From Candidatus Altiarchaeota archaeon (GTDB lineage Archaea > Altiarchaeota > Altiarchaeia > IMC4 > SCGC-AAA252-I15): 64,000 bases of DNA. The position numbers and the translations under genes were made by a program. Each line of letters opens with the position of its first letter. Position 1 is the first letter of the stretch. Below the pieces are notes generated by a model, which saw only the letters and a program-made list of their open reading frames with translations, searched no databases and was not told the DNA's origin. Below, in pieces: positions 16,029 to 47,400 of the stretch. The DNA lies in the NCBI GenBank assembly GCA_041306075.1, contig JBFYKH010000027.1, positions 4,226 to 68,225 on the forward strand. The letters run 5' to 3'.

Positions 16029-17885
16029 ATGTGCGGCATCGTGGGCGCGATGGGCCTTCAGGACAGGGATCTCGTCAGGTCCATGATGGACGCCGTCCGG
16101 CACAGGGGCCCGGACGACAGCGGATTCTATGTCGGCGACGGCGTCAGCCTCGGGCACATGCGCCTAAGCATAATCGACCTTTCCGCCCGGGGCCGCCAGC
16201 CCATGGGCAACGAGGACGGGACAATCCAGATAACCTACAACGGCGAAGTCTTCAACTACAGGCAGTTGAGGGCGGAGCTTGAGGCCGCGGGGCACACGTT
16301 CCTAAGCGACACCGACACCGAATGCCTCGTCCACGGCTACGAGGAATGGGGCCTCGGATTCGTCAGGAGGCTCCGGGGCCAGTTCGCGTTCGGCCTATGG
16401 GACGGCCTCAATCGGAGGCTCGTACTGTGCCGGGACCGCGCCGGCATACTTCCCCTGTACTACGCGGAGTTGGACGGCATAGTCCTGTTCGCGTCGGAGC
16501 TGAAGGCTCTCCTCAGGTACGAGCCGCTGAAGCCGAGGCTCGACTACAGGGCGCTCGACAACTACCTCACGTTCCAGTACGTCCCGGAGCCGGACACCAT
16601 ACTAGAGGGCGTCAGGAAGCTCGAGCCCGCGCACATGAGGGTGTGGGACAGGGAGGGTGTGAGGGACGTCAGGTACTGGGACCTCGACATCGGACGAGTG
16701 TCCGACCTGGGCGAGGCGGAGTGCGTGAGGGAGCTGACAGCCCGCCTCACCGACTCCGTGCGGGCGAGGCTGGCGAGCGACGTTCCCCTCGGCGTCCACC
16801 TGTCCGGCGGCATAGACTCGAGCGCGATAACGGCGGTGGCGGCCTCCCTAATCAAGGAGCCTGTGAGGACGTTCAGCATAGGGTACGGGCATGACGAGGT
16901 CGACGAACTGAAGCATGCGAGGCTCGTCGCCGAACACCTTGGGACCGACCACCATGAGATAGTGGTCGGCGCCGACGAGGTCCTCGGCGAACTCGAGGAA
17001 GTCGTCTGGCACCTGGACGAGCCGAACGGGGACCCCGCGCAGATTCCCGAATATTTCCTCGCCAAACACACTAAACGGCATGTCAGCGTCGTCTTCAACG
17101 GCGGCGGCGCCGACGAGGTCTTCGGCGGCTACAGGGCCTACAGGTACATGGCGGCTGCGGAGAGGCTGAGGAGGTCGGCTCCCGGGCCCCTGAGGCGGGC
17201 GATGAGGCCCCTCAGGAATCTCCCCATGCCGGCCCGGCACAGGCGGTACGTGGACTACGTCAGCTCAGGGGACGAGGACAGGATTTACTGGGGGCAGGGA
17301 CTCATGTTCGGCGACCTGGAGCGCGGGAAACTCTACTCGGCGGGCCTGTGCGCGAGGACGGCGGGGAACGACCCCGCCCTGATGATTAAGAGGCACTTCG
17401 ACGAGAAGGCGCCGGAGCGCCCGGGGATGCTCAACCTCCTCAGCTACGTCGACTTGAAGGGGTGGGTGCCGGGCAACTGCCTGTCTAAGCTGGACAGGGT
17501 GATGATGGCCCACGCGGTGGAGGCGAGGGTGCCGTACCTGGACCACCTGCTCGTCGAGTATGCTATGACGATTCCCCCGCACCTGAAGCTGAAGGGCGGC
17601 GTCGAAAAGCACATACTCAGGAAGGCGATGGCGGGGAGGCTGCCGGAGGCGATAACGAAGAGGCCGAAGAAGGGCTTCGGAGTCCCCACCAACCACTGGC
17701 TGTTCAGGGACGTGAACGACGCGGTCTCGGAGAGGCTCATGAAGTCGAGGTTCATCAGGGAATGCTTCAGGCCGGAGAGGGTGCGCTTCCTCGCGAAGGG
17801 GACGCGGGACTACAGGCATTCGAGCCAGCTCTACGGCCTCCTGGTGCTGGACATGTGGCATGAGAGGTATCTGGGGGGAAGATGA
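16029..17885 (+). CDS. asnB: asparagine synthase (glutamine-hydrolysing)-type amidotransferase
   Basis: MCGIVGAMG N-terminal nucleophile start, ...HRGPDD..., SGGIDSS PP-loop; 618 aa. Confidence 0.85.
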   Translation: MCGIVGAMGLQDRDLVRSMMDAVRHRGPDDSGFYVGDGVSLGHMRLSIIDLSARGRQPMGNEDGTIQITYNGEVFNYRQLRAELEAAGHTFLSDTDTECLVHGYEEWGLGFVRRLRGQFAFGLWDGLNRRLVLCRDRAGILPLYYAELDGIVLFASELKALLRYEPLKPRLDYRALDNYLTFQYVPEPDTILEGVRKLEPAHMRVWDREGVRDVRYWDLDIGRVSDLGEAECVRELTARLTDSVRARLASDVPLGVHLSGGIDSSAITAVAASLIKEPVRTFSIGYGHDEVDELKHARLVAEHLGTDHHEIVVGADEVLGELEEVVWHLDEPNGDPAQIPEYFLAKHTKRHVSVVFNGGGADEVFGGYRAYRYMAAAERLRRSAPGPLRRAMRPLRNLPMPARHRRYVDYVSSGDEDRIYWGQGLMFGDLERGKLYSAGLCARTAGNDPALMIKRHFDEKAPERPGMLNLLSYVDLKGWVPGNCLSKLDRVMMAHAVEARVPYLDHLLVEYAMTIPPHLKLKGGVEKHILRKAMAGRLPEAITKRPKKGFGVPTNHWLFRDVNDAVSERLMKSRFIRECFRPERVRFLAKGTRDYRHSSQLYGLLVLDMWHERYLGGR

Positions 17886-26876: not shown

Positions 26877-26948
26877 GCGACCGTAGTGTAGTGGCTATCA
26901 CTCCAGATTGCCAATCTGGTGACTCGGGTTCGAATCCCGACGGTCGCA
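26877..26948 (+). tRNA. tRNA-Gly (anticodon GCC), intronless
   Basis: GCGACCG-TA-GTGTAGTGGCTATCAC-T-CCAGA-TTGCCAA-TCTGG-TGAC-TCGGG-TTCGAAT-CCCGA-CGGTCGC-A; canonical cloverleaf with 4-nt variable loop; CCA not encoded. Confidence 0.9.
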
Positions 26949-26975
26949 AACTGATTTATTTGTTAACGATTTCTT

Positions 26976-27036
26976 GTCACGAAACCGTCGGGGTGCAAAA
27001 AGCCTGCAGGCTTTTATAGAAAATCACGACTGCCGC
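26976..27036 (+). repeat. ~60-nt structured repeat, copy 1 (immediately 3' of tRNA-Gly)
   Basis: tcacgaaACCGTCGGGGtgcAAAAAGCCTGCAGGCTTTTatagaaaatCACGACTGCCG; about 85% identical to copy 2; inner palindrome AAAAGCC/GGCTTTT. Confidence 0.6.
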
Positions 27037-27073
27037 ATGGATAAAAAGGTATATCCCCTAGGGATGATACATA

Positions 27074-27319
27074 ATGATGGACAAAGGGGATACTCGCGTA
27101 ATCTGGATTATTTCAATAATAATAGTCATGGCAATTTTCCCCCATAGCGAAAAAAGATGTGAACGATGCTCGGAGCTATTTACGCTTGGCTGGCCAATCG
27201 ATACCTATTCAAGAAACAGCACGGGAGATTTGATTGCGCCCGGGGCAGGACTTATAGTATACCCTTTAACCATCCTAATCCTTCTTACCTATCGAAACCA
27301 GCATAAAAAAATTAATTAG
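27074..27319 (+). CDS. doubtful small hydrophobic ORF within AT-rich insert
   Basis: 81-aa ORF in a ~500-bp AT-rich segment between the two structured repeats; no support beyond ORF length. Confidence 0.15.
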   Translation: MMDKGDTRVIWIISIIIVMAIFPHSEKRCERCSELFTLGWPIDTYSRNSTGDLIAPGAGLIVYPLTILILLTYRNQHKKIN

Positions 27320-27536
27320 GTTGATTTTTCCCTAGTACCCATTCACCTTGGAGGTTGAGGTATATTTCTAGGTTTCCACCCCCCCCGACCCATCCGTTCG
27401 CTCGTACAATGTTCTTCGCCTGGTATTGAAGTCCGATACAGCCGCAAAATTTTTCGGAGATGTGGGATGGCTACGCATTAGATATTTTACGCAATTCCCA
27501 ACGGCCGGAAACTGAATTTTTGGCGGACAATTTATC

Positions 27537-27596
27537 GTCACGAAACCGTCGGGGTGTAAAAACCTGAATGGTTTTTAGAAAAATCCCGACGGTCGA
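27537..27596 (+). repeat. ~60-nt structured repeat, copy 2; 3' arm is a 14-nt identical copy of the tRNA-Gly 3' end (att-like)
   Basis: tcacgaaACCGTCGGGGtgtAAAAACCtgaatGGTTTTTagaaaaaTCCCGACGGTcgaaa; AATCCCGACGGTCG (27582-27595) equals tRNA-Gly 26931-26944. Outer 9-bp stem ACCGTCGGG/CCCGACGGT; inner stem AAAAACC/GGTTTTT covaries with copy 1. Confidence 0.6.
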
Positions 27597-27672
27597 AATT
27601 ATATCTATTATCGGTTTGGCTGCTGTGTTGAAATAGTGTAGCGACTTAATATCGTATACTTCCGGCTTGTAT

Positions 27673-28398
27673 ATGACGATGAGGAAGTTGAGGGGGCAGC
27701 CGCTGCTTTCCCCGCCCGGCCCGGATTTGGTGCCTGAGTGGCTGAGGGTGACGCCAGAGGACAGGGAATGCATGAGAGGGACGCTTGAGACGTATAGGAC
27801 GATGGACGGCCTCGACTGGGCGTTGGCGGAGTTGCACTGCCATATGCGGCTTATTGGCGAGACGCAGACCGTGACGGATGAGGATAAGAGGGGGTTTACG
27901 AGCCAGATGGAATCGTATAGGACGGACCGGGACGGCTGGGGTGTGGCCTTGATGCAGTATTCCATGCGGCAGCTCGGGGTGGCGGAAGCGGTAACTGAGC
28001 AGGATAGGAGGCTCATGAGGCGTGAGTTGGAGGCGGACAGGACAGGTCACAAGGGCGGAGAGCTTGCCTGGATGCACTATACTATGCGGCAGCTCGGGGT
28101 GACGGAGGCGGTAACCGGCGAGGACAGGCAGGACATGAAACAGCAGTTGGGCGGATACAGGACGGACCACGACGGCGCGGGAGTCGCCAGGATGCACTAT
28201 TATATGCGGCAGATTGGGGAGGGGGAGGCGGTGACGGGCCAGGACCGCATCGACATGAGGCATTCCCTGGAGGCGTTTAGGTCGAGCCCGGACGGCCGGG
28301 AGATGGCCTGGATGCACCACGTCCTCCGCTCCCTGGAGCCGGACGGCGGGAGGCAGGCGCAAGCCGGGATGCCGCCTTTGAAATCGTTCAGGAGGTAA
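27673..28398 (+). CDS. RP family member 1: novel ~40-aa tandem helical-repeat protein with conserved N- and C-terminal caps
   Basis: MTMRKLRGQPLLSPPG... then 4.5 repeats (..DGxxxAxMHYxMRQLGVxEAVTxEDRxxMxxxLxxYRT..) ... GMPPLKSFRR; paralogous to five other genes in the window. Confidence 0.6.
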   Translation: MTMRKLRGQPLLSPPGPDLVPEWLRVTPEDRECMRGTLETYRTMDGLDWALAELHCHMRLIGETQTVTDEDKRGFTSQMESYRTDRDGWGVALMQYSMRQLGVAEAVTEQDRRLMRRELEADRTGHKGGELAWMHYTMRQLGVTEAVTGEDRQDMKQQLGGYRTDHDGAGVARMHYYMRQIGEGEAVTGQDRIDMRHSLEAFRSSPDGREMAWMHHVLRSLEPDGGRQAQAGMPPLKSFRR

Positions 28399-34098: not shown

Positions 34099-35544
34099 AT
34101 GTTCTGGTCTGATGAGGGGGAGTTGCCCAGGATACACGGCAGCCTTGAGCTGAAGATACAGATTGTCCTCCTCGCCGCGGTGACTGCGATACTCGGCTCC
34201 ATAGGCTTCATACTCCTGCCGCTATTGTACACCGAACGGGACCCCGTGGCATCCATAATATTCGCATGCCTCCTCGTGGTGTCGAGCGTCTTCCTCGGCG
34301 GGTCGCTGGTGTTCGCGTACTACAAGATGAGGGTCGGCGCCGAGGCGAGGACGTACGCGGAGGAGATGCTCGAGCACGCACTCCGCGACGGGATGGACGC
34401 TGCGCTCGCGGAGCAGAAGAACAGGTACTCGGAGCTCCTCGCAAGGGAGCGGGGGGAGCTCGTCGAACGGCTTGAGAGGGAGAAGAAGCAGTACACCGAC
34501 GGATTGAAGGCGGAGTTCGACAGGAGGCTGGACGAGGAGGAGAAGGAGTTCATAGAGTCCCACAGGAGGGAGTACGAGGCCAAGCTCGGGCAGGAGCGGC
34601 AGAGGTACATGGAGGAGCTGAGGGTGGAGTTCGACAGGAAGCTGGACGCGGAGAGGCGCAGCATACTGTCGGAGGCCGGAGGCGAGTTCGACAGGCGACT
34701 CGGGGCCGAGCGGGACACCGCCATGGAGGAGGCCCGGCGGGAGATGGAGAAGGCCCTCCAGGAGGACAAGAGGAGGTACATGGACGCCCTCAGGGAGGAG
34801 TACGACAGGAGGCTCGAGGAGGAGAGGCGGCAGTACGAGGAGCGGGCGGGGAAGGAGCTTGAACGGCAGATGTGGGATGAGAGGAGGGCCTACTCCGAGC
34901 AGGCGAGCCGCGACCTGAACGAGAAGCTGGAGGGCGAGAGGCGCTCCTACATGGAGGGCCTCGTCAGGGATTTCGAGTCGTGGAAGAGGAATTTCGCGGA
35001 GGGCTTCAGGAGGGAGATGGAGTGGGGCGCGGTGAAGCCGAAGCCTCCCGAGAAGCCGGCCGCCAGGGAGGAGAAACAGGCCGCTATTGTGGAGGAGAAA
35101 CAGGTCAAGGAGTCGACGGTGGACGAGATATTCGGCAGGGTTGAGGAGGAGGCGAAGGCCAGGCCTGCACCCGTGAATCTCGCTGGACTCGCGGCCGGGG
35201 ACATGCTGGAGGCGGCGGTGAACCACCTGCACGGAGCGGCCTACGGGGCGAAGGTCACGTTCACGAACGCTAAGACTGGGAAGTACTTCAGCCTCGTGAG
35301 GAAGGCGAACAGGGAGGTGCAGTTGGAGGCGCCAATAGAGAACGTCGCCATCAAGGCGAGGCTGATGCTCAGGGAAAACGCGGCGGTGAACAGACTCGTC
35401 TTCGAGAAGACAGTCGACGCCGTCAAGGTGACGTTCCAGGGAGACGCGGACTACGCCGCAAAGAGGCTGGGGGAGGCTGTGGAAATAGCGTTCGGCGAAG
35501 GCTTGGACGCCCTCAAGCTTCAGGCGGATGCGAAGGATATGTAG
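34099..35544 (+). CDS. membrane-anchored coiled-coil protein with ~22-aa charged tandem repeats
   Basis: Two N-terminal TM; then eight or more repeats of the form RRYM(E/D)ALREE(Y/F)DRRL(D/E)EE; C-terminal globular domain. TATA gcttatatcttcc 27 nt upstream of ATG (leaderless). Confidence 0.5.
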   Translation: MFWSDEGELPRIHGSLELKIQIVLLAAVTAILGSIGFILLPLLYTERDPVASIIFACLLVVSSVFLGGSLVFAYYKMRVGAEARTYAEEMLEHALRDGMDAALAEQKNRYSELLARERGELVERLEREKKQYTDGLKAEFDRRLDEEEKEFIESHRREYEAKLGQERQRYMEELRVEFDRKLDAERRSILSEAGGEFDRRLGAERDTAMEEARREMEKALQEDKRRYMDALREEYDRRLEEERRQYEERAGKELERQMWDERRAYSEQASRDLNEKLEGERRSYMEGLVRDFESWKRNFAEGFRREMEWGAVKPKPPEKPAAREEKQAAIVEEKQVKESTVDEIFGRVEEEAKARPAPVNLAGLAAGDMLEAAVNHLHGAAYGAKVTFTNAKTGKYFSLVRKANREVQLEAPIENVAIKARLMLRENAAVNRLVFEKTVDAVKVTFQGDADYAAKRLGEAVEIAFGEGLDALKLQADAKDM

Positions 35545-35608
35545 CTGTTTCGGCGGCGGCCGAAAGAAACTGTCGCAGGGTATATATGCCCGTTACCATT
35601 CATTTAAC

Positions 35609-38233
35609 ATGAGGGTTTTGTGGCTGTGTCTGGCATTGATTGCGCTCGCCTGCGGCTGCATCTATACGCAGGGGGGCGACGCCCCGGCCGAGACCATCCC
35701 CAGCCCGGGCGTTACGACGACCGTCCGGGCGCCTGAGACGACGGTGCCGGCGCCCGCGAGCACGATCGGGCCAGTCGCCGCCAAAGACTCCGCCCCGGAT
35801 TTCTCAGGATACTATGCGTACAGTAAACCGGCGTATTCGCCGAAGGTGCCGGGATACGCCCTGCCCCTGACGCCGTCCGGGATAGCGAACTACGATGATG
35901 TGAAGCCCAAGCTTCTGCTCACGGACGACGCCCGCCTGCTGGCGAACGGCTTCGCCGTAGTCCGGAACCCGTACGACCCCGCCGAGGAGGACATAACGGC
36001 CATGTACAAGAGTCTCAAGGACGACGGGGTGCCGGTGTTCGTGACCGCCGACAGCCTCCTCCACCTTTACCACATACAGTTCGACGAGTCGCTCAGGCGA
36101 ATCGAGGAGAGGCAGTTCTACGACATGGCTTGGAACCTCTCCAGGCGGCTCGCGGACGCGAACATCAGGGGCTACGGTTCCGCGTCGGGCGAGGAGAAGG
36201 AGGCCTACAGGAGGAACATCGCATACTTCACCGTGGCCTTGAGCCTCCTGGAGCCGAAGGCCGGCCAGTACTGCGAGGATGGCGACTGGGAGTGCCGCGG
36301 CTCAGGGGAGAGATTCGACAGGGCAGAGTACGAAAAATACGCCCTGAGGGGCTACCCATGCTGCATATCGGATAGCAGGGAGGTGAAGTGCGAGGCGTGC
36401 GAGTACCCGGTGCAGGGCGACGTGAACTGGGAGCTTGCGCTCATCCGCGCCCACGAAGGCTTTGGCGAGTCGCCGATTTTCGCCTACAAGGAGGACTACA
36501 GCCAGTACCTGCCGCGCGGCCACTACACGAGGAGCGAGAAGCTGAGGAACTACTTCATGGCGATGATGTGGTACGGGAGGATGAGCTTCCTCCTGAAGGG
36601 GAGCGACATAGTCTCCGGGGAGGATGCGAGGATACAGACCCGGCAGGCGAGCCTCATCGCATCGCAGCTTTCGAACGACCCTGAGGCCAAAGCCATGTGG
36701 GACAGGATATACGGCGTCACAGCCTTCTACGTCGGATTCTCAGACGACCTCGGCCCCTACGAGTACAGGGAGGCGGCGAACAATGTGTTCGGCGGCCGGG
36801 CGGACCTGTCCGGGGACGGCTACGCGAAATTGAAGGCCGAGCTCGCCGCTTACAGAAGCCCGAGGATATACGGGGGCACGGGCGACTGCCTCATCATGCC
36901 GCCCTTCAAGCCCGATGACGCGGACAAATGCCTCGAGTCTACGAAGGGCTTCAGGCTCATGGGCCAGAGGTTCATCCCGGACAGCTACATGTTCTCCGAA
37001 CTGGTCTTCCCCTACACCGGCAGATACACGGGAGAAGGCGGCGCCTTCACGGCCTGCATGACCGATGCAGGCGTAGTCAGATGCTTCCCCCGCGGCCTCG
37101 ACGCGATGGCCCTCCTAGGCTCGAAGAGGGCGGCGGACATACTCGTTGAGTCGGGGGACGCCGACTATGCGAACTACTCTGGCGTTTACTCGGCGCTTGA
37201 CGTGGAGTTCGGCAGCTTCACGGAGGCCGAGTGGAACAGGAACCTGTACTGGAGCTGGCTTTACGCCCTGAAGCCGCTCCTGGCCGAGTACGGAGAAGGA
37301 TACCCGACGTTCATGCAGTCGGAGGCGTGGCAGGAGAAGGAGCTGACGACGGCCCTGGCCTCGTGGACGGAGCTCAGGCACGACACGATACTTTACGCGA
37401 AGCAGAGCTACACCATGAGGGCGACTGGCATGCCGTACATCCCCCCCGAGAAGCCGGTGGTCGGCTACGTGGAGCCCCTGCCAGAGTTCTACGGGAGGCT
37501 CCTGGCGCTCTCGAAGATGACGGACAGGGGGCTCACGGAGATGGGCGTCCTCGACGGGGAGGCGAAGGGCAGGCTGGAGAGGCTCGAGGGCATACTCGCG
37601 AGGCTGCAGGATATCTCAGTCGACGAGCTCGAGGACAGGGAGCTCACCGAGGACGACTACGCGTTCATCAAAAACTTCGGCGAAGGGCTGAACGGCGTCA
37701 TAGCCGACGTCGACGAGAAGGCGAAGAAGACGACGATAGTCGCGGACGTCCACACCGACTCGAACACCCTGAGCGTCCTGGAGGAGGGCGTCGGCTACGT
37801 CGACATGATGCTTGTCGCCTACAGGGTGCCCGACGGCAGGGTGCTCCTCGGGGCCGGCCCCGTCTTCTCGTACTACGAGTTCAAGCAGCCGATGGCCGAC
37901 AGGCTCACGGACGAGAAGTGGAGGGAGATTCTAGCATCCGACCCGCCGTCCAGGCCGGAGTGGCTGATGGAGGGGGATGCGGGCGGAACAGCCGGGGGCG
38001 AATGCTCCTCCGACCAGGACTGCGCCAGGGGCGGCTGCTCCGGCACCGTCTGCGCCGCCAAGGAAGAGGCAGCGGACACAATCACCACCTGTGAATGGCG
38101 GCCGCAGTACGAGTGCTACAGGACGGCGAAGTGCGGCTGCTTCGACGGCAGGTGCGGGTGGCTGCAGACGGGGGAGTTCCAGTCATGCCTTGCAGGAAAA
38201 GGCGTTCGCATGCGCGAGCCGGAGGGCGCCTGA
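35609..38233 (+). CDS. secreted lipoprotein, DUF3160-like, with C-terminal Cys-rich module
   Basis: MRVLWLCLALIALACGC (lipobox-like) followed by a TTVPAPAST linker; ~800-aa domain; C-terminal GECSSDQDCARGGCSGTVC...CEWRPQYECYRTAKCGCFDGRCGW (10 Cys). Confidence 0.5.
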   Translation: MRVLWLCLALIALACGCIYTQGGDAPAETIPSPGVTTTVRAPETTVPAPASTIGPVAAKDSAPDFSGYYAYSKPAYSPKVPGYALPLTPSGIANYDDVKPKLLLTDDARLLANGFAVVRNPYDPAEEDITAMYKSLKDDGVPVFVTADSLLHLYHIQFDESLRRIEERQFYDMAWNLSRRLADANIRGYGSASGEEKEAYRRNIAYFTVALSLLEPKAGQYCEDGDWECRGSGERFDRAEYEKYALRGYPCCISDSREVKCEACEYPVQGDVNWELALIRAHEGFGESPIFAYKEDYSQYLPRGHYTRSEKLRNYFMAMMWYGRMSFLLKGSDIVSGEDARIQTRQASLIASQLSNDPEAKAMWDRIYGVTAFYVGFSDDLGPYEYREAANNVFGGRADLSGDGYAKLKAELAAYRSPRIYGGTGDCLIMPPFKPDDADKCLESTKGFRLMGQRFIPDSYMFSELVFPYTGRYTGEGGAFTACMTDAGVVRCFPRGLDAMALLGSKRAADILVESGDADYANYSGVYSALDVEFGSFTEAEWNRNLYWSWLYALKPLLAEYGEGYPTFMQSEAWQEKELTTALASWTELRHDTILYAKQSYTMRATGMPYIPPEKPVVGYVEPLPEFYGRLLALSKMTDRGLTEMGVLDGEAKGRLERLEGILARLQDISVDELEDRELTEDDYAFIKNFGEGLNGVIADVDEKAKKTTIVADVHTDSNTLSVLEEGVGYVDMMLVAYRVPDGRVLLGAGPVFSYYEFKQPMADRLTDEKWREILASDPPSRPEWLMEGDAGGTAGGECSSDQDCARGGCSGTVCAAKEEAADTITTCEWRPQYECYRTAKCGCFDGRCGWLQTGEFQSCLAGKGVRMREPEGA

Positions 38234-38234
38234 G

Positions 38235-38993
38235 ATGGGAGACAAGATAACCCTCGACCGCGAGACGTTCAAGGCCCTGGCCGCTGACACCAGGGTCGAC
38301 ATACTGAAGAAGATTGCAGAGCGGAAGCTGACGCTCACGGACCTGTCCGGCGACATGGGGATGAGCCCCTCCACCATCAAGGAGCACCTGGACCGGCTCG
38401 TCGAAGTCGGCCTCATAGAGCCGGACGAGCGTGGGATGAAATGGAAGTACTACACGCTCACCGAGAAGGGCAGGAACATCGTGAGCCCGAACGAGACCAA
38501 GGTGTGGATACTCCTCGGGACCAGCCTGCTCATCATGTTCGGCGCCCTCCTGTCGACTGCGTGGCAGCTCGCCGGCGCCGGCGTCATGGAGTCCCGGGCC
38601 CCAGGCTCAGCCGAGGTTATAGTGCTCGCCGAGCCCCCGAGGACCGACCTCCTCTTGGCGGCGAGGAAGGATGCTGCTGCACTGGAGGCCGCGCCGAAAA
38701 TGCTCAGGTCCGCAAGCGGCGCCGGCACGGACGAGACGGGAGACTTGAGGCTAGAGGAGGCCCGGGAGACGGATGAAGCCAATGCGTCGGCGGAGGCCGT
38801 GCAACTGATGGTCGCCGCCGCGCCCGCAGGCGGCGGCGAATCCGCATCCGGAGTATACGCCGGCGAGGACAGGCTCCGCGCCCGGGATGGAGGCGGAAGC
38901 CCGGTGGTCGAGGCCATCGTCTTCCTCGCCTCAGCGACGGTGGCGCTAGCCTGCATCGTCCGCATATTCAAGGCAAGGGCGGTCAGCCTCTGA
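38235..38993 (+). CDS. ArsR-family HTH regulator fused to a TM segment and C-terminal tail
   Basis: MGDKITLDRETFKALAADTRVDILKKIAERKLTLTDLSGDMGMSPSTIKEHLDRLVEVGLIE (ArsR/SmtB wHTH); TM WILLGTSLLIMFGALLSTAW; second hydrophobic segment at the C-terminus. Confidence 0.6.
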   Translation: MGDKITLDRETFKALAADTRVDILKKIAERKLTLTDLSGDMGMSPSTIKEHLDRLVEVGLIEPDERGMKWKYYTLTEKGRNIVSPNETKVWILLGTSLLIMFGALLSTAWQLAGAGVMESRAPGSAEVIVLAEPPRTDLLLAARKDAAALEAAPKMLRSASGAGTDETGDLRLEEARETDEANASAEAVQLMVAAAPAGGGESASGVYAGEDRLRARDGGGSPVVEAIVFLASATVALACIVRIFKARAVSL

Positions 38994-39735
38994 CTACCGC
39001 CGACGCCCCCGGGTCGAACGGGTTCAGCCGCATCGCGAGCGAGAAAAGGTAGGGGTAGTTGTTCTTGAGGTGCCGCATGTACGCCGCCCACTCCACGACT
39101 ATGAGGCCGTAGACGCGTTTGACGTCGTTGTGTATGTGGTCCAGGTCCGCCTGCGGCAGCGACGACAGGTCCTCCCGGTTGTCGAGCTCCTCCGCCAGGT
39201 GGAACACCGCCTTCAGGAGGTCTGTGAACGTCTCGTGCTCTAGCAGGTTCGGGTTCTCGGACAGGCGCATCAGGAACTCCCTCTTCGAGTGGAGGTACGC
39301 CTTCATGACGCGCAAGTCCATGGCGCAGCGGTCTATGCCGTATTTGTAGGCCTTGAGCCTGCCGGCCATGCGCTCGAATTCGGCGTCGCTCCAAGTGTCC
39401 CGCACGAGAAGGTCCCGGCGTATGTCGCCGAGCTCCGGGTCGCATTCCGAGAACGTCCGCATCAGCTTCGTCCCCATCTCCGAGAAGAAGAGGCCGATGA
39501 CCATGTTCACCTTCTCGAGGCGGTCCCTGCGCTCCCGTTCAGCGAGGACGCGGTCCACGAGGAATGTCACCAGGAGGACCTGGATGGGCAGGAAGGCCAG
39601 GTCCTCGAGCGAGAATATCCCTATGTGGTGCGGGTCCCGGTACACGAGGTAGTGGGCCCCGTACAGGAGGACGGACGACGCAAGCAACGCGATGCCGAAC
39701 CGCACCTGCCAGTCCTGAGCCTTCAGAGAATCCAC
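38983..39735 (-). CDS. hypothetical membrane protein
   Basis: 250 aa; two N-terminal TM (FGIALLASSVLLYGAHYLVY..., FLPIQVLLVTFLV) plus a soluble domain; immediately downstream of the RP array. Confidence 0.4.
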   Translation of the reverse strand: MDSLKAQDWQVRFGIALLASSVLLYGAHYLVYRDPHHIGIFSLEDLAFLPIQVLLVTFLVDRVLAERERRDRLEKVNMVIGLFFSEMGTKLMRTFSECDPELGDIRRDLLVRDTWSDAEFERMAGRLKAYKYGIDRCAMDLRVMKAYLHSKREFLMRLSENPNLLEHETFTDLLKAVFHLAEELDNREDLSSLPQADLDHIHNDVKRVYGLIVVEWAAYMRHLKNNYPYLFSLAMRLNPFDPGASAVVRG

Positions 39736-39783
39736 CCAGGATATAATTGTCTCATGGCTTTTTAAACCGCTTCAAGGGAGGCG

Positions 39784-40515
39784 TCATCGCGCGAACCTCC
39801 TGAGAGGGGGGAGGGGGATGGCGTCGTCCCCCTGCCGCTCCAGCTGGAGTATCCTCCGGAGCCAGTTGTGGTCCTCGGCCAACTCGATGCCGCGGCCTCC
39901 GAGCCGCGCCTTCTCGGGCTCCGCCGACATGAGCCGCCAGTCCTCTTGCGAGAGCTCCGTCTCCACGCCGACGCTCCGCATGTTGTAGTGGAGGAGGAGT
40001 ATGCCGCGGCCGTAGCCCTTCGCCCGGTCGCTGGCGAGCTGCCCGGCCATGGCCTTACGGTCCTTCCCCGCGGCCTCGGCGTCCACGCCGAGCTCCGCCA
40101 GCCACCGGTGCATCTGCGCGATATTGTAGCCGGGATTCTTCGTGGAACGCAGCGAATCCAATGCCGAGAGCATGAGCCGGGCATCGTCCGCGGATGGTTT
40201 CCCGGCTAGGCCGACATGTTTCAAGTCGGCTAGCATGCCGGCGAGCGGGAAGCCTTCGCCGCGCGAGCGGTACCCGCCTGTGCACTCGGCGAACATCCTC
40301 CCGTCCCCTTCGGCTTTTGGGGCCTCGTGCCCCATCTCCGCCATGCATCGGAGAATCTTGGCCGCGCCGATGCCGTACCCGTCCTTCCTGCATCCGGCGA
40401 GGTTCTCCTCTACGGCGAGCTGGTCGTCCTGGGTGAACTCCAGGGCCTGGAACCTGAACGAGCCTGGCGGGTTCATGAGGGGCTGCATCCGGAAGCCTGC
40501 GAGCCTGACTGTCAT
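39784..40515 (-). CDS. RP family member 2 (last gene of 3-gene array)
   Basis: MTVRLAGFRMQPLMNPPG ... repeats (..LLLHYNMRSVGVETELSQEDWRLM..) ... IPLPPLRRFAR; start overlaps stop of member 3 (ATGA). Confidence 0.6.
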   Translation of the reverse strand: MTVRLAGFRMQPLMNPPGSFRFQALEFTQDDQLAVEENLAGCRKDGYGIGAAKILRCMAEMGHEAPKAEGDGRMFAECTGGYRSRGEGFPLAGMLADLKHVGLAGKPSADDARLMLSALDSLRSTKNPGYNIAQMHRWLAELGVDAEAAGKDRKAMAGQLASDRAKGYGRGILLLHYNMRSVGVETELSQEDWRLMSAEPEKARLGGRGIELAEDHNWLRRILQLERQGDDAIPLPPLRRFAR

Positions 40516-41276
40516 CGCCCATACCTCTTGAGGCCCGGCAGCGGGTGGCCGGCAGCCTCATCAACCCCCGGGTCCGCCCTCAACGTCCCCTGCAGGTAGT
40601 ATAGGAGCCCGACGACGATGAGGCCGTCTCCCTGCCGCCGCCTCTCCTCCAGTTCGCCGCGTATAAGCCCCAGGTCCGCTTCCGTCATCTCCGGCCTGTG
40701 GCCGAGCCCCCTGAGGGCCCAGTGAGTCCAGTTCAGGCTGTACGCGTCCCCCATCCTGCGCGACTCCTCAAGATGCGCCATCGTGAACGCGAGCCCGTCC
40801 TTGCCTAATGCTTCGTTGACTCCGAGGCCGCTGGCGTACACATGGGCGAGCGCCGTCTGCCCCCTCTGAACGAAATGGTTCCTCATCCCCAGGAAGCGCC
40901 GCGCCGCCGCCTTCTCCTCGCCCGACAGTTCGACGCCGATGCCGAGGTTGCGCATGTGCCAGGCGTACTGGAGGAGGCGGACAGGAGTCTGCTCGGCCGC
41001 CTTCCGTATGACCTCAAAGTCATCCACCGACCTCCGGACGTCCTCCTTCCCCGTGGGGACGGAGATGCCGACGCTGATTGCCCGGTCTAGGAGGGGGGCG
41101 TAATCTCCGCCTGCGGCCACACGCCCCGTCCCCGAGTCGGCCCTGAGATTATCGACTGCCGCCTCGATAATCTCCCTGTCAGACTGCGACGTCCGAGCCC
41201 ACTCCGTCAGGGAGTCGTCGAGCCTAGGTGGCTCAAGGAGGGGCTGACCCCTCAGGCCCTTAAGCCTGGGAGTCAT
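40512..41276 (-). CDS. RP family member 3
   Basis: MTPRLKGLRGQPLLEPP ... HPLPGLKRYGR; ATGA overlaps on both sides. Confidence 0.6.
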   Translation of the reverse strand: MTPRLKGLRGQPLLEPPRLDDSLTEWARTSQSDREIIEAAVDNLRADSGTGRVAAGGDYAPLLDRAISVGISVPTGKEDVRRSVDDFEVIRKAAEQTPVRLLQYAWHMRNLGIGVELSGEEKAAARRFLGMRNHFVQRGQTALAHVYASGLGVNEALGKDGLAFTMAHLEESRRMGDAYSLNWTHWALRGLGHRPEMTEADLGLIRGELEERRRQGDGLIVVGLLYYLQGTLRADPGVDEAAGHPLPGLKRYGR

Positions 41277-42004
41277 CTTTGGAACCTCTTCAGCCCCGGA
41301 AAGGGAGGCGCATCGCGAGCCCTGGGCTCTGGTAAAGTGTCCTTGAGGTGGTGAAGCATCGCCGCCACCGTCCAGCCGTCTCCGTGCTCCCTAGCGTAGT
41401 CCAGGGAGAACCTGGCGGCATGCAGGTCCTTTTCCGTGAATTCGCATCCCATCCCCAGCCGCTTCATCAGGTAGTGCATCTCCGCTATGGATTCTCCGCT
41501 GGCCGCGCCGACGCCCTCGCCCCTAGCCTTGGAGAGCTTGCATGCGATTATGGCCCGGTCAGCGGCTTCCACACCCGCCTTGCCGGTCAGAATCTTCCTT
41601 GCGTCCAGCAGGTTGGCGAGGAACCAGCCGTCCCCCGCCTGGCGCGCGGACAACACCCGGCCGTCCAGCGTCTTAAGGACCTTCGCCCCATGGGGGCTGC
41701 CGTCCAGGCCGACGCCCTTCATCTTCGCGAGCACGAGGGGCTTGAATTCCCCGGAGCCGGCCGCATCGTCCGAAAGGAGCCCCCGCATCAAGGCGAGGTC
41801 AGAGTCCGTCACCTCCTCCGGGCTGCCGATGCCCCGGAGGTGGCGGTGGAGGGCCGTCAACTCCATGGCGTGCCCGTCCTTACGGGCGTAGTCGAGAGAC
41901 CTTTTGATGAGCTGCATGTCAGATTCCGCGGCGACCCGCCAGCCCTCGTACTCGCCTGGCTCCGTGAGGAGAGGCTGGGCCCTGAGCTTCCGGAGTGCGG
42001 GCAT
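41273..42004 (-). CDS. RP family member 4 (first gene of 3-gene array)
   Basis: MPALRKLRAQPLLTEPG ... IAEMHYLMKRLGMGCEFTEKD ... PPFPGLKRFQR. Confidence 0.6.
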   Translation of the reverse strand: MPALRKLRAQPLLTEPGEYEGWRVAAESDMQLIKRSLDYARKDGHAMELTALHRHLRGIGSPEEVTDSDLALMRGLLSDDAAGSGEFKPLVLAKMKGVGLDGSPHGAKVLKTLDGRVLSARQAGDGWFLANLLDARKILTGKAGVEAADRAIIACKLSKARGEGVGAASGESIAEMHYLMKRLGMGCEFTEKDLHAARFSLDYAREHGDGWTVAAMLHHLKDTLPEPRARDAPPFPGLKRFQR

Positions 42005-42034
42005 GTAGTATTCTCGGCAGGAGACGGTTATAAG

Positions 42035-43174
42035 TCAGGCGGTGAGGTATTCCAGCTCCTCGTCCTCGAGGCGGAAGCGCTCCTGAAGCCCGCCCGGGTC
42101 GACCTTCCCTTTCGAAAGGAGCGTCCGGTAGAGGGGTATGTAGTCCCTGGCAAAGGACTTTGCGGACGCGTGCAATTCCGGCCCCATCTTCCCTGCGATG
42201 GACTTCTCGAGGTTGCGGTCCCCCTTCGTCCTGCCCATCGCGGCGAAGAAGCCCGGGAACATGTACTGGGTGAAGTTGATTTTCGCCGGCCGCATCACGT
42301 TCACCCCCGCCGTCATCAGCGCGTTCGCGTACCTGAGGAAACCCCAGTGCTGCCTGCGCATTATCCGGCCTAGGAAGACGTCGGCGCGGGAGAGGCTCCC
42401 GTACGCGCCGGCGATGGCCTCCCTGTCGTTGTAGAGCCTTGGCGTGTTCTCCTCCACCCACCAGATTATGTCCCTCGGCTGCTCGCTCAGGCCCCAGGTG
42501 GACTCCACCACCTCCCTGAGGTCGCGGCCGCCGAAGATGATGCTGAGCGCCCGGTATATGTCGCCGCCCCTGTCGCGCTCCGCCAGGACGCCTTCCATGT
42601 CCCGCTCGGACACGTTCTTCTTGCCTTGGCAGAGTGTCTCGAGGTCCGAGAGCGCCGCCCTCACGTCGCCGCCCGCGTTCTTCGCTATCTTTTCCAGGAC
42701 CGGCTTCTCCACCCGGACGCCCTCGCTTTCCGCCACCGACTGCATGTGCTTCACGAGCGACGCTGGCAGCGGCCTCCTGAGCTGCAGGAGCTGGCACTTC
42801 CGCTTCAGGGTCGCGAGCCTCTTGTTGGAGGGGTCGTCCGTCGTCAGGATGAGAGGGTTCTTCGCACCCTCGACGAGGGCGCCGACCGACTTGATGTCCT
42901 TCACCGACTCCACGCCCTCTATGAGAAGCATCCTCCTGCCGCCGAAGAGGCTGCCTGTGTTCGCCGCAGCCTCCGACCGCTTGGCGTCGCCGCCGTCGGA
43001 CTCCACGACCTCCCAACCCCGCTCCGCCGCCAGGAGGCGGGCGAGCAGCGTCTTGCCCGTGCCCGTGGGGCCGGCTATGATGAGGGGCCTGCCGTCCCAC
43101 TTCCTCGCCTCCTCCACGGCCGCCTTCCCGATGAATCCGTCAAGGCTCCCGGGCCGGTGCTTGAGCTGCCACAT
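42035..43174 (-). CDS. rfcL: replication factor C large subunit-like AAA+ clamp loader
   Basis: MWQLKHRPGSLDGFIG...LIIAGPTGTGKT (Walker A), PLILTTDD (sensor 1), GGDVRAALSDLETL (RFC GDxR motif); the Walker B region LLIEGVE is atypical. Confidence 0.55.
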   Translation of the reverse strand: MWQLKHRPGSLDGFIGKAAVEEARKWDGRPLIIAGPTGTGKTLLARLLAAERGWEVVESDGGDAKRSEAAANTGSLFGGRRMLLIEGVESVKDIKSVGALVEGAKNPLILTTDDPSNKRLATLKRKCQLLQLRRPLPASLVKHMQSVAESEGVRVEKPVLEKIAKNAGGDVRAALSDLETLCQGKKNVSERDMEGVLAERDRGGDIYRALSIIFGGRDLREVVESTWGLSEQPRDIIWWVEENTPRLYNDREAIAGAYGSLSRADVFLGRIMRRQHWGFLRYANALMTAGVNVMRPAKINFTQYMFPGFFAAMGRTKGDRNLEKSIAGKMGPELHASAKSFARDYIPLYRTLLSKGKVDPGGLQERFRLEDEELEYLTA

Positions 43175-44989: not shown

Positions 44990-45988
44990 ATGATAACGGT
45001 TGACGGCTCCCTCGGGGAGGGCGGAGGCCAGGTCCTGAGGACGGCAGTCGCCTTGAGCGCGGTCTCAGGCGAGCCGGTAAGGGTGTCCGGGATACGCAGA
45101 GGCAGGAGCAACCCGGGCCTCCGGCCCCAGCACCTGAAGGCGGTGGAAGGCGTCGGCCTCCTGTGCGACGCCTCTGTGGAGGGGTTGAGTGCCGGCTCCA
45201 CGGAGGTCGCGTTCGCCCCGGGGGGAATCAGGGGCGGCGCCTTGAGCTTGGACGTCGGCACCGCGGGGTCGGCGACGCTTGTTTTGCAGGCTCTCCTGCC
45301 GGTGGCCCTGTCCGCGCCGGCCGGCGTGGAGCTGACCGTCCGCGGAGGCACGGACGTCAGCGCGAGCCCGACAGCGGACTACTTCAGAAACGTGTTCCTC
45401 GGGAACCTCAGGTCCATGGGATGCGAAATCGAGGCCGAAACCGCATTGAGGGGATTCTACCCGAGGGGCGGCGGGGAGATACGGGTCAGCGTGAAGCCGT
45501 GGAAGAGGGGGAGGAGGGAGTTCCCGGAAAGGGGAGACATAGGGTCCATACGAATCCACAGCATCGCATCAGAGCACCTTAGACTGCAGGAGGTCGCGGA
45601 GAGGCAGGTCAAAGGCTTCCTGAAGGCCGTGTCCCCGCTCCACAGGGTGGACGCCCCCGAACCAGCCTACGTCAAGTCCGAGAGCGTCGGCTCCGCAGTG
45701 ACGGCAGAGGCGCGGTGCGGGGGGACTGTCGTCGGAGCCTGCGTCCTCGGGGAACGCGGACTCAAATCAGAGATGGTCGGGAGGATGGCTGGCGAAAGTC
45801 TGCTCGCCGAGCTCGCCCACGGAGCCCCGATAGACTCCCACATGACAGACCAGATAATCCCGTACCTCGCCATCGCCGGCGGCCGGGTGAGGGCGCCGCC
45901 CTTCACCGGACACGCGAAGACGTGCATCGAAGTCGCCAGGATGTTCGGCTTCGACGTCAGGTTCGAGGAGGGGTTGCTGACGGCCTGA
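44990..45988 (+). CDS. rtcA: RNA 3'-terminal phosphate cyclase
   Basis: MITVDGSLGEGGGQVLRTAVALSAVSGEPVRVSGIRRGRSNPGLRPQHL (RtcA signature); start chosen at the second Met to give the canonical length (333 aa). Confidence 0.8.
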   Translation: MITVDGSLGEGGGQVLRTAVALSAVSGEPVRVSGIRRGRSNPGLRPQHLKAVEGVGLLCDASVEGLSAGSTEVAFAPGGIRGGALSLDVGTAGSATLVLQALLPVALSAPAGVELTVRGGTDVSASPTADYFRNVFLGNLRSMGCEIEAETALRGFYPRGGGEIRVSVKPWKRGRREFPERGDIGSIRIHSIASEHLRLQEVAERQVKGFLKAVSPLHRVDAPEPAYVKSESVGSAVTAEARCGGTVVGACVLGERGLKSEMVGRMAGESLLAELAHGAPIDSHMTDQIIPYLAIAGGRVRAPPFTGHAKTCIEVARMFGFDVRFEEGLLTA

Positions 45989-45994
45989 ACCCGA

Positions 45995-46693
45995 CTATGC
46001 CTTAAACCTCTTCAGCGGAGGTACGGACTCCTGCCGCACATCCTCCCGCCCGGGCATGAGCCCGTTCACGTAGAGCAGCATGGAGGACAGGAAATCCCTG
46101 GACCCGGCCATCCTGTGCCGCTCGATATCGTCCCTGAACAGTATGAGGTCCTCGGCCGTCGGCTTAGCCTCCAATCCGAGCCCCTTCAGGTGGTACATGG
46201 CCCTGGCGAGCATCATCCCGTTGCCGTCGGCTCTTGCATGGCCCACCACCTCCGGGAAGACCCTCCTCGTCTCATCGTCCAATGCTACCGGCTGGCCTAA
46301 TGCCGCCATCTGGTGGTATCTGACGATGGCCTGGAAGCCGTCCGGGTCGCTGAACACATGCCTCCTCATCGCCTCGGCGTCTTCTTCGGGTATCTTCTGG
46401 GGCCTGCCCATCTCCTCCAGGCAGTAGTACTTCGTCAGGAGCCCAACCGGATTTTGGCCCCGCCGGTCCCCGGGGATTGACGCGACGACAGTCTTGACGT
46501 GCCTCTCATCGTATTGGAGGCCGAGCGCGTGCAGGCTGTGGAGCAGCCTCGCCAGGGTATGTGAGTCGGCCTCGTCCAAGCCCCTGGATAATAGCTCAGC
46601 GTCCTTCTCGGTGGGCCTCATCCAGTCGTACTCCAGCCGTTTCGGTGCAGACAGAAGCGGCGGCTCCTTGAAGCCTGTGATTCTGACCTTCAT
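45995..46693 (-). CDS. RP family member 5 (second gene of 2-gene array)
   Basis: MKVRITGFKEPPLLSAP ... MLARAMYHLKGLGLEAKPTAED ... VPPLKRFKA; ATGA overlap with member 6. Confidence 0.55.
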   Translation of the reverse strand: MKVRITGFKEPPLLSAPKRLEYDWMRPTEKDAELLSRGLDEADSHTLARLLHSLHALGLQYDERHVKTVVASIPGDRRGQNPVGLLTKYYCLEEMGRPQKIPEEDAEAMRRHVFSDPDGFQAIVRYHQMAALGQPVALDDETRRVFPEVVGHARADGNGMMLARAMYHLKGLGLEAKPTAEDLILFRDDIERHRMAGSRDFLSSMLLYVNGLMPGREDVRQESVPPLKRFKA

Positions 46694-47400
46694 CCCCGGT
46701 ACCTCTTCAGGGGCGGAAGAGGAGGCGCCTTTCCCGCATCCTGAGCGGGCTTCAGGATGTTCGCGAGGTGGTTGTGGATTTGCGCGACTTTATCCCAGTC
46801 GTCGTCCAAGCGGAGGCTTTCAAGGGTCCTTCTCATCAAATCCATGTCCTCCCGCAGAAACGGCTCCGGCGAGCCCGCCTCCCTCAGGCTGTGGTGGAGT
46901 ATCGCCAGTTCCAAGCCGCTATCCGACGCCCTGGACTTCGCAAGTTCCCGCCTCATCGCCGCTACGTCCTGCGGGCGCGGAGCGTACGGCAGAGCGACTT
47001 CCCTGGCCAGAAGGTACATCTGCGCCATGGCGACCGGAGTCTGCGAGGATATCCCGTCGAACAGCGCCTTAAGACGAGCGTCTTGCGACGGCGTCCTCCT
47101 CGCTCCGAGGCCGACCCGGGCGGCGATGCCGGATAATATCAGGAGCGCCTCGCCCTCGCGGGTGGACTTCGCCAGGCGTCTTATCTTCGACTCCTCGTCG
47201 GCCGTCGGTTGACACGGCAGGCCCATGCACTTCAGCGTGTAGAGTGCGGCCGCTTGTGTGAGCACGTCGTCCCCGCCCCGGGCCCGCCTCAGGGACTCCT
47301 CTATCTCGGGCATGTCCCCGGAGGGTATGCGGTAGCCTCCCCTCTCGGGCGGCGGCTCCAGGAGCGGCTGCCCGCGGACGTCCCTGATTTTCACCGGCAT
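46690..47400 (-). CDS. RP family member 6 (first gene of 2-gene array)
   Basis: MPVKIRDVRGQPLLEPPP ... LELAILHHSLREAGSPEPFLRED ... PPLPPLKRYRG. Confidence 0.6.
   Translation of the reverse strand: MPVKIRDVRGQPLLEPPPERGGYRIPSGDMPEIEESLRRARGGDDVLTQAAALYTLKCMGLPCQPTADEESKIRRLAKSTREGEALLILSGIAARVGLGARRTPSQDARLKALFDGISSQTPVAMAQMYLLAREVALPYAPRPQDVAAMRRELAKSRASDSGLELAILHHSLREAGSPEPFLREDMDLMRRTLESLRLDDDWDKVAQIHNHLANILKPAQDAGKAPPLPPLKRYRG

Follow-up and report, generated by a model that had tools for sequence, protein, structure and literature searches.

We analysed 64,000 nucleotides of a contig from a Candidatus Altiarchaeota archaeon, hereafter the window. Three consecutive genes lie on its minus strand: gene C, the first of the array (41273–42004, 243 aa), gene B, the second (40512–41276, 254 aa; P0002 in the protein collection searched), and gene A, the third (39784–40515, 243 aa). 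Each is an open reading frame matched by the family HMM (E = 2.7e-60 for C, 1.7e-51 for B and 6.5e-64 for A). A sequence-only reading of the window had placed three minus-strand ORFs of 243–254 aa at exactly these coordinates and had called them mutual paralogs, which blastp bears out over full length (27–28% identity, E = 2e-10 to 3e-14); overall, their pairwise identities are 22–28%. It had also described an ATGA stop/start overlap at each junction. Read directly from the sequence, these overlaps are at 41273–41276 (C/B, minus strand) and 40512–40515 (B/A, minus strand). Recent tandem amplification of A, B and C was considered and rejected: there is no DNA-level repeat among them, and adjacent array paralogs are 15–35% identical.

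A Shine-Dalgarno (SD)-like AAGAGGT, the putative ribosome-binding site of gene B, occupies 41284–41290 (minus strand), within the K-R-F codons of gene C and 7 nt before the ATG of gene B. The same sequence recurs from B to A (40523–40529) and from E to F (46701–46707). Gene C is separated from the stop codon of the upstream gene by a 30-nt spacer (42005–42034, minus strand), which is kept in a related metagenome contig, L001 (cttattatcacctcctgccgagaatactatATG). Since the spacer contains a TATA-like CTTATAAC about 24–31 nt upstream of the ATG of gene C, it may be the array's own promoter, with a leaderless start.

The flanking genes are not family members, and both are of the kinds previously suggested, an RfcL-like clamp loader and a membrane protein. 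Upstream is the large subunit of RFC (RFC-L; 42035–43174, minus strand, 379 aa; NCBIfam E = 4e-68). It is a short form, as in Altiarchaeota homologs; its homologs named Candidatus Altiarchaeota are 44–67% identical. Downstream is an MJ1433-like protein (38983–39735, minus strand) with two hydrophobic N-terminal segments, whose orthologs in L001 and L019 carry PF27246/PF27232 (MJ1433_N/C domains).

Three further copies had been reported, making six in 64 kb, and this count holds: an HMM of the six copies gives exactly six matches in the window and nothing further at E ≤ 1. Gene E (46690–47400, minus strand, 236 aa) is the first of a second, two-gene array and shares an ATGA at 46690–46693 (minus strand, read from the sequence) with gene F (45995–46693, minus strand, 232 aa). 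Gene D is solitary, on the plus strand (27667–28398; 243 aa from a TTG, or 241 aa from the ATG at 27673). It is the window's top family-HMM match (E = 8.6e-81) and has the most regular 40-residue repeats among the copies. A tRNA-Gly adjoins gene D, and the 3' end of the tRNA is duplicated, as at integration sites. Gene D was rejected as foreign DNA, its GC (0.62) and GC3 (0.82) being like those of the other copies; a local dip in GC near it stems from a 718-bp spacer. Two regex matches to the N-terminal motif were also discarded as relics and attributed to chance. One (45959–45982) is antisense to the conserved RTC C-terminus (...GLLTA, also in L001), and the other (1344–1370) falls within a real gene but in a different frame.

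Extent, tails and predicted fold of the family

Exhaustive searching with HMMER yielded 204 clusters of the family, almost all of 225–262 aa, and a metagenome scan found three family loci, one of them already in the set. The family is therefore kept elsewhere, and going by the sequences collected it has so far been found almost only in uncultured archaea. The earlier statement that it fits no named repeat class agrees with the profile searches. Pfam gave no match for A, B or C at E ≤ 1 and none for D and nine relatives at E ≤ 0.1; newer precomputed Pfam annotation of the relatives' genes is blank for the family. NCBIfam, PADLOC and PHROGs gave no family match, collections of phages, plasmids and viral contigs held no copies, and a search of the literature library used here for the signature motifs returned nothing relevant. 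The family is new in the sense that it is without an entry in Pfam, NCBIfam, PADLOC or PHROGs and without a sequence relative of known structure. As judged from sequence, genes A–F are members of a real, undescribed protein family.

The N- and C-terminal motifs of A–F are present as first described. Family-wide they read MTVKIKxLRxQPLLxPP and MPPLK(R/K)F, and most members have both (104/152 family sequences collected). Aligning 96 sequences leaves just three invariant columns, P12, L13 and P236, each a tail position. The tails are basic, proline-rich and almost invariant across the family, with a charge of about +2 per tail beside a core pI of about 6 (median 6.1). Thr at position 2 is in part a by-product of the ATGA overlap, because the overlap forces codon 2 to begin with A. 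The array-first genes C and E carry Pro there instead. The C-terminal motif was also considered as a mere embedded SD and rejected as such. L008 retains PPLKKF with AAAAAATTC codons and no SD-like sequence, so the constraint acts at the level of the peptide; L007 places GGAGG in extra Gly codons, not in the C-terminal motif.

Between the tails, the core is predicted to be a curved alpha/alpha solenoid of five stacked 40-residue hairpins. Two independent AF2 models, of gene A (pLDDT 84.2) and gene D (pLDDT 91.6, pTM 0.85), each have ten helices forming five hairpins with a period of 40 residues, and a loop of 2–4 residues joins helix A to helix B in both. The helix-turn-helix alpha-solenoid first proposed from sequence is thus what AF2 also predicts. 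Of the 4–5 units of about 40 aa given earlier, the period is right and the count is five in every protein; gene C, for example, consists of an N-terminal tail, five hairpins and a C-terminal tail. The termini had been taken for caps, which does not hold. Both models show them as tails of low confidence with no predicted secondary structure, and not as helices capping the solenoid. Each protein is soluble, with no long hydrophobic stretch, signal peptide or membrane segment.

The repeat consensus is eVTxeDreaMreeLeeaRkegDGleLAElHYYMkeLGlpe. The core motifs given previously, MHYxMRxLGV and EAVTxEDR, are a good description of copy D and not of A, B and C, in which they are degenerate. Within the repeats, conservation is confined to framework positions (a T-x-x-D helix capping box, buried Met/Leu, the Arg that ends helix A, and Gly turns), and exposed positions vary freely among paralogs. 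Two long relatives have family repeats fused behind HEAT repeats.

Selection, decay and array organisation

The genes are real, because their orthologs in L001 are 71–77% identical with dN/dS of 0.18–0.32. Individually, the values are 74% and 0.21 for C, 71% and 0.32 for E, and 77% and 0.18 for F (ortholog P0005), and these three genes are under purifying selection. Gene A has an 83%-identical ortholog, P0004. That the genes are frame artefacts or decaying pseudogenes, which a GC-rich genome with many long spurious ORFs and one decayed array member might suggest, is already refuted by these dN/dS values, the full-length orthologs, the 204 clusters and the confident AF2 models.

The decayed member is a relic of a fourth array gene at 39752–39787 (minus strand), which has an ATGA overlap on the stop of gene A. 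It is a mini-ORF encoding MTPPLKRFKKP and a stop, that is, a start codon and Thr joined directly to the C-terminal motif. Its counterpart in L001 is a truncated, frameshifted gene ending PLPPLKRFKKA, and the DNA is near-identical. Paralog content also differs between close relatives, with B and A in the window versus X1 in L001.

The three-gene array A-B-C is a small instance of a common arrangement. Arrays in relatives have 3, 2+7 and at least 11 family genes, mostly with 4-nt overlaps; counting solitary genes, array size ranges from 1 to at least 11. Over all arrays read, family junctions are −4 overlaps in 20/27 cases, −1 overlaps in 2/27 and spacers of 5–7 nt in 3/27. Stop/start overlaps are therefore a family-wide trait. 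Compact archaeal genomes often contain ATGA overlaps, which alone are no proof of physical interaction.

Arrays lie among housekeeping genes: at the loci read, neighbours include RFC-L, RTC, Tmk, an M24 peptidase, L21e and IleRS. At L007 there are in addition an AAA_14/DUF4143 ATPase and an IS630-type transposase with arrays on either side. Lineage-specific expansion had been proposed from the six copies alone, and the wider comparison agrees. The arrays are lineage-specific insertions, because three other Altiarchaeota MAGs keep the same housekeeping gene order and lack the family in that syntenic block. An RFC-L scan of genome contigs found two loci, neither with family genes.

Possible function and rival explanations

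Our main reading is that these proteins are binding scaffolds, not enzymes, in which the framework is conserved, the surfaces vary and the constant tails serve for docking, and that they are produced in coupled sets. We give this a probability of about 0.5. Because the ATGA overlaps run head to tail, termination and re-initiation down the array is possible. Translation would initiate once, at the first gene, and ribosomes would then terminate and re-initiate along the array through the overlaps, such that the paralogs would be made together in a fixed proportion. Each paralog would owe a specificity of its own to its variable solenoid surface. The constant tails would be short docking motifs, their target being either the groove of a neighbouring paralog, which would form a hetero-oligomer or chain, or a single shared partner. 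Coupled translation, binding and tail docking are all inferred. In archaea, overlapping co-directional gene pairs are translationally coupled by termination-reinitiation, and their products are often subunits of heteromeric complexes (PMC6728339, PMC10666635); operon order tends to track assembly order (PMC4742563).

The HEAT-fused repeats of the two long proteins fit a protein-binding module. Foldseek against the PDB found nothing below E = 1e-3; the top match was 7ue2 (E = 0.012), a designed repeat protein that binds the proline-rich peptide (PLP)x6. Variation in array length and paralog content argues against one complex of fixed stoichiometry, and the solitary gene D means that a partner from the same array is not obligatory. 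A bolder form of this reading, which we offer tentatively and regard as doubtful, has Altiarchaeota and a few related archaea encode dozens of 'five-sixths toroid' modules with hypervariable surfaces, each flanked by two proline-rich tails that do not vary. Through these tails the modules would either link up into heteropolymers or all attach to one common machine, and whole arrays would spread in cassette form to intergenic sites of housekeeping regions.

Among the alternatives, it is possible though unlikely that the family is a diversified repertoire for conflict or host interaction, either an immunity/antitoxin-like array or a set of effectors or adaptors whose tails would serve for export or targeting and whose variable solenoids would bind foreign or host targets. 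Altiarchaeota coexist with episymbionts and viruses. The long tandem arrays of paralogs that are highly diverged even when adjacent would suit this explanation, as would the birth-and-death turnover seen as relics in the window and L001, the patchy insertion into conserved housekeeping synteny, the ATPase and transposase beside the L007 arrays and the tRNA-Gly beside gene D. However, no locus read has an adjacent toxin, nuclease or secretion gene; the neighbours are housekeeping genes. The PADLOC and PHROGs searches and the phage, plasmid and viral collections were negative, selection on orthologs is ordinary purifying rather than diversifying, and the proteins have neither a signal peptide nor a hydrophobic anchor.

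We consider it improbable that the proteins are sequence-specific nucleic-acid binders of the PPR/PUF/OPR/TALE type, with one repeat per base. Five modular 40-residue units with variable surface positions could serve such a role, and replication (RFC-L) and RNA-repair (RTC) genes are neighbours. But the acidic-to-neutral core has no conserved basic ladder, and Pfam gives no PPR, PUF or OPR match. Nor is the neighbourhood conserved: RFC-L has no array in the three other Altiarchaeota, and elsewhere the neighbours are unrelated.

It is quite improbable that the family are degenerate, calmodulin-like EF-hand proteins that bind Ca2+, in which one 40-residue unit would run from the F-helix of one EF-hand through a linker to the E-helix of the next. 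Calmodulins do come up when the PDB is searched with a profile (E = 0.002–0.07, over 3–4 units), hhalign against human calmodulin gives a probability of 75%, and the two share the pattern ELxxxMxxLG, a 2–5 residue linker, TxxE/D and DG. In that same PDB search the de novo designed 8gaa outscores calmodulin (E = 5e-4), so the pattern arises easily in idealised hairpins. The hallmark of an EF-hand is a 12-residue Ca2+ loop in which positions 1, 3 and 5 are conserved D/N/S ligands and the last is Glu. In this family the loop between helices A and B is far shorter than that, the 'DG' turn is only 26% D and 46% G, no Glu is conserved at loop position 12, and the Pfam searches described above, at the thresholds given there, found no EF-hand.

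Very improbable, finally, are minimal alpha/alpha-toroid enzymes or ligand carriers akin to prenyltransferase beta, terpene cyclase, GH88/105 or the transcobalamin alpha domain. The family has five hairpins where these enzymes have a closed barrel of six (or seven), about half the size of the enzymes and 5–13% sequence identity to them. It has no Pfam Prenyltrans, SQHop_cyclase or GH match, no Foldseek match below the threshold given above and no conserved Asp-rich, Zn-ligand or acid/base residues; its invariant columns are all in the tails.

Significance and comparison with known systems

The family combines traits in an unusual way: a conserved framework, free surfaces, near-invariant and unstructured-looking tails, and overlapping arrays of diverged paralogs. 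It belongs to the Altiarchaeota, which have not been cultured and whose cell biology is poorly known. If the tails are docking motifs, the family would offer a tractable entry to the protein-interaction networks of Altiarchaeota, and protein designers would gain a minimal alpha/alpha-repeat scaffold from nature. Even as nothing more than a structural protein, it would remain a well-defined new domain family that deserves curation.

The predicted solenoid superposes on five of the six hairpins of alpha/alpha toroids (transcobalamin/haptocorrin alpha, C3d/TED, prenyltransferase beta, terpene cyclases, GH88/GH105). It differs from them in having five hairpins in about 200 residues and no sequence similarity, catalytic or ligand residues, or Pfam match, and the tails and array organisation are unique to the family. 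With TPR, Sel1-like and armadillo/HEAT repeats and the designed RPB_PLP3_R6 (7ue2) it shares a repeated helix-turn-helix unit, a conserved framework and a variable surface. It differs in its own 40-residue consensus, which no named-class HMM matches. Repeat periods are 34 residues for TPR, 36–44 for Sel1, 37–47 for HEAT, 42 for ARM, 35 for PPR, 36 for PUF and 33 for ankyrin. The likeness to EF-hand proteins and calmodulin is a borderline profile similarity over several units; the family lacks the Ca2+ loop and conserved ligands, and its unit is predicted to be a tight hairpin in a solenoid, in contrast to paired EF-hands.

In gene organisation, the closest comparison is with coupled operons for heteromeric complexes (ATGA/TGATG; PMC6728339, PMC10666635), in which the genes likewise share one direction and meet at −4 or −1 overlaps. 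The SD-like sequence in the window lies within the last codons of the upstream gene. The difference is that here every coupled gene is a paralog of one family, in arrays that reach at least 11 genes and vary in length and content among relatives. In the bolder form of the main reading, the family would be a prokaryotic counterpart of F-box adaptors or effector families, which pair a constant handle with a variable binder.

A new helical-repeat family

The genes belong to a new, uncurated helical-repeat family with a five-hairpin, toroid-like fold and a 40-residue period, mainly limited to Altiarchaeota-like archaea. It is recognised by two invariant proline-rich tails and by arrays of several overlapping genes. 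The family is relevant to specialists in archaeal genomics and in repeat proteins.

Three minus-strand genes lie where the sequence-only reading placed them: C at 41273-42004 (243 aa), B at 40512-41276 (254 aa) and A at 39784-40515 (243 aa). The C/B and B/A junctions are ATGA, with stop and start sharing 4 nt. By blastp the three are paralogous over their full length at 27-28% identity (E = 2e-10 to 3e-14), as that reading had proposed. Searches by tblastn and by an HMM made from the copies recovered the three others it had counted, D (27667-28398, plus strand), E (46690-47400, minus) and F (45995-46693, minus), and no more at E <= 1 in the 64-kb window. The E-F junction is likewise ATGA, and the terminal motifs are present as described. 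There is no DNA-level repeat between copies, so the paralogy is old and recent amplification is ruled out as their source.

A related metagenome contig (L001; L002-L004 hold the same sequence) shares synteny with the window, and its orthologs of C, E and F are 74, 71 and 77% identical to the window copies, with dN/dS of 0.21, 0.32 and 0.18; the values for RFC-L, the replication factor C large subunit encoded beside the array, are 88% and 0.16. A has another ortholog, P0004, at 83%. Identities of 71-83% and dN/dS of 0.18-0.32 exclude the explanation that the ORFs are frame artefacts with no conservation elsewhere, a risk the sequence-only reading had named. The start of one L001 gene, X1 (16147-16899), is placed in the record at 16210 (TTG, 229 aa). 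The true start is GTG at 16147, which gives a GTGA overlap with the upstream stop and restores the canonical N-terminal motif (MTVRFRNLKAAPLLSPPG).

Pfam, NCBIfam, PADLOC and PHROGs models matched neither the copies nor nine diverse relatives. The precomputed Pfam annotation of the relatives' contigs, from a newer release containing PF27xxx and PF28xxx families, is blank for every family gene, in agreement with the earlier failure to assign a named class. A search of the literature library found no relevant paper on the terminal motifs. Searching 1.84 billion representative proteins exhaustively with HMMER gave 204 family clusters at E <= 1e-3, 52 of these at E <= 1e-30, nearly all 225-262 aa long and spanning the entire profile. 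Viral contigs, phage genomes and plasmids yielded no family members.

Among 152 collected family sequences, 104 show both terminal motifs: MTVKIKxLRxQPLLxPP is the consensus at the N-terminus, and (P)MPPLK(R/K)F, with 1-5 residues after it, the one at the C-terminus. The only invariant columns in a 96-sequence alignment (P12, L13 and P236) all fall in these tails. Tail-less members are rare. Two of them, P0118 and P0137 (L006 4773-7955; ~1,070 aa), are the sole domain fusion seen, with an HExxH-containing N-terminal region (LLHEHTHYVQG), HEAT_2 repeats and four family repeats at the C-terminus; their contig is probably bacterial, since BipA and a hybrid histidine kinase are encoded on it as well. 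Other exceptions are a membrane-anchored copy from an uncultured archaeon (VVB51135.1) and a few internally expanded forms.

Predicted fold and repeat anatomy

Confident AlphaFold2 models of A (pLDDT 84.2, pTM 0.79; aligned with the six paralogs only) and D (pLDDT 91.6, pTM 0.85; 96 family members) each show five hairpins built from ten helices. In D the A helices begin at residues 30, 71, 111, 151 and 191, a period of 40. Each unit comprises helix A (16 residues), a turn of 2-4 residues, helix B (13 residues) and a loop of 8 residues. These models agree with the solenoid of 40-residue units proposed from sequence and settle its 4-5 units at five. They do not agree with the description of the termini as caps: residues ~1-22 and ~224-243 lack secondary structure, have low confidence (below 50 for the shallow alignment of A, ~60 for the deep one of D) and are predicted to be tails.

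Foldseek gave no match below E = 1e-3; the best was 7ue2, a designed repeat protein in complex with a (PLP)x6 peptide (E = 0.012). About 180 of ~195 ordered residues superpose on six-hairpin barrels. From this fit we infer that the hairpins follow six-fold toroid curvature and form a 'five-sixths' ring, which would bring both ends, and hence both tails, near each other.

Stacking 480 units gave the consensus eVTxeDreaMreeLeeaRkegDGleLAElHYYMkeLGlpe, in which T3, D6, M/I10, L14, R18 (77% of units), G23, A27, L36 and G37 are conserved. T3 and D6 form an S/T-x-x-D/E helix capping box, an established structural motif. Since the remaining positions all have entropy near 3.5-4 bits, the conserved residues look like a framework, with the exposed surface free to vary.

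Arrays and their genomic setting

Arrays are the rule in the family. One 8-kb contig (L008) consists of 11 consecutive family genes and the start of a twelfth. Another locus (L007) has 2 + 7 around an AAA_14/DUF4143 ATPase gene, beside an IS630-type transposase; L005 has three, L013 two, and L001 3 + 2 plus a relic. Neighbouring paralogs share only 15-35% identity, except for a single pair that reaches 51%. Family junctions are -4 overlaps in 20 of 27 cases, -1 overlaps in two and 5-7 nt spacers in three. An ATGA overlap makes codon 2 start with A (Thr, Lys, Asn or Ile), and the array-first genes C and E have Pro there, which explains the T/P alternative in the motif as first described. With array size, codon 2 and the tails so refined, the sequence-only interpretation holds overall.

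At the window junctions, a Shine-Dalgarno-like AAGAGGT (41284-41290, 40523-40529 and 46701-46707, minus strand) lies inside the upstream gene's last codons, in those for K-R-F/Y (AAG AGG TTC/TAT/TAC), 7 nt ahead of the next ATG. In L007, Gly codons added after Phe make GGAGG (tails end FGGGG). We infer that both sequences act as ribosome-binding sites. The L008 junctions have no Shine-Dalgarno-like sequence, yet PPLKKF is kept. The C-terminal motif is thus constrained as a peptide, with a putative ribosome-binding site fitted inside it in differing ways.

An 11-codon ORF, MTPPLKRFKKP* (39752-39787, minus), overlaps A's stop by ATGA and joins a start codon and Thr to the C-terminal motif; it is what remains of a fourth array gene, now deleted. 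Its counterpart at L001 16896-17130 is truncated; it runs for ~75 codons before a frameshift and ends PLPPLKRFKKA on nearly identical DNA. The ancestral array was therefore one gene longer, and the extra gene is decaying in both lineages. L001 also has the single gene X1 in place of B and A, and a third gene after F with no counterpart in the window.

All RFC-L homologs at 44-67% identity carry the name Candidatus Altiarchaeota or Altiarchaeales, which places the window in an Altiarchaeota genome. Three Altiarchaeota MAGs (L019-L021) retain the M24 peptidase / RTC / Tmk / HD / RFC-L / MJ1433-like block, and none of the three has family genes within 10 kb of it: RFC-L immediately adjoins the MJ1433-like gene in L019, and M24 adjoins Tmk in L021. 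The arrays are therefore lineage-specific insertions at intergenic sites of a conserved housekeeping region, in keeping with the lineage-specific expansion first proposed.

The window's RFC-L (42035-43174, minus) has only 379 aa and scores under the curated NCBIfam cut-offs. Altiarchaeota homologs are mostly ~378-382 aa, against ~465 aa in homologs at 33-34% identity, so the clade appears to have a shortened RFC-L lacking the usual C-terminal region. Directly upstream of the solitary D, within a 718-bp spacer of 43% GC, the 3' end of tRNA-Gly(GCC) and downstream sequence are repeated (26877-27609): 26935-27022 has a 75%-identical copy 561 bp further on (27496-27583), and 27582-27609 is a third, partial one. 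The repeats look like scars that integration has left at a tRNA gene. A 901-aa secreted-looking protein (35528-38233, plus) is encoded past an HTH regulator, two genes downstream of the array; its L001 ortholog combines DUF3160 with a C-terminal 'Heavy_Cys_CGP' domain rich in Cys. At 898-1013 (minus; Rfam 67 bits) there is a lone 5S rRNA gene, and no other rRNA genes were detected in the window.

Proposed function

With a median pI of 6.1 the cores are mildly acidic; the charge on each tail is ~+2, and long hydrophobic segments are absent. The family lacks conserved polar residues outside the framework, motifs for cofactors or metals, and export signals, which points to soluble, non-enzymatic scaffolds. 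In archaea and bacteria, overlapping co-directional gene pairs undergo translational coupling by termination-reinitiation, and subunits of heteromeric complexes are over-represented among their products (PMC6728339, PMC10666635); assembly order tends to be mirrored by operon order (PMC4742563). The presumably coupled expression of the arrays suggests that the paralogs act together.

A conflict or effector repertoire would fit the diversity within arrays, their gene turnover and patchy insertion, and the mobile elements nearby in L007, but toxin and defence genes are absent and purifying selection is of the ordinary kind, and we consider this unlikely. Binding to nucleic acid is less plausible still, given the acidic cores and an RFC-L and RTC neighbourhood that is not conserved. 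Toroid enzymes or carriers share the family's geometry but not its hairpin number, size, motifs or HMM matches, making such a role very improbable.

The contrast between a variable surface and invariant tails, together with the coupled arrays, favours co-expressed binding scaffolds with tails that would act as short linear docking motifs (probability about 0.5). The structural and genomic parts of this model are well supported; binding and docking are what we propose from them. The variable solenoid would be the binding module, and the tails would dock into a groove of the neighbouring paralog or onto one shared partner. Proline-rich peptides are usually bound by aromatic cradles, and positions 30-33 of every unit, in helix B, offer His, Tyr and Met. 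The nearly invariant tails and variable solenoid surface seen here match the architecture of proteins in which a constant handle for docking is paired with a variable module for binding.
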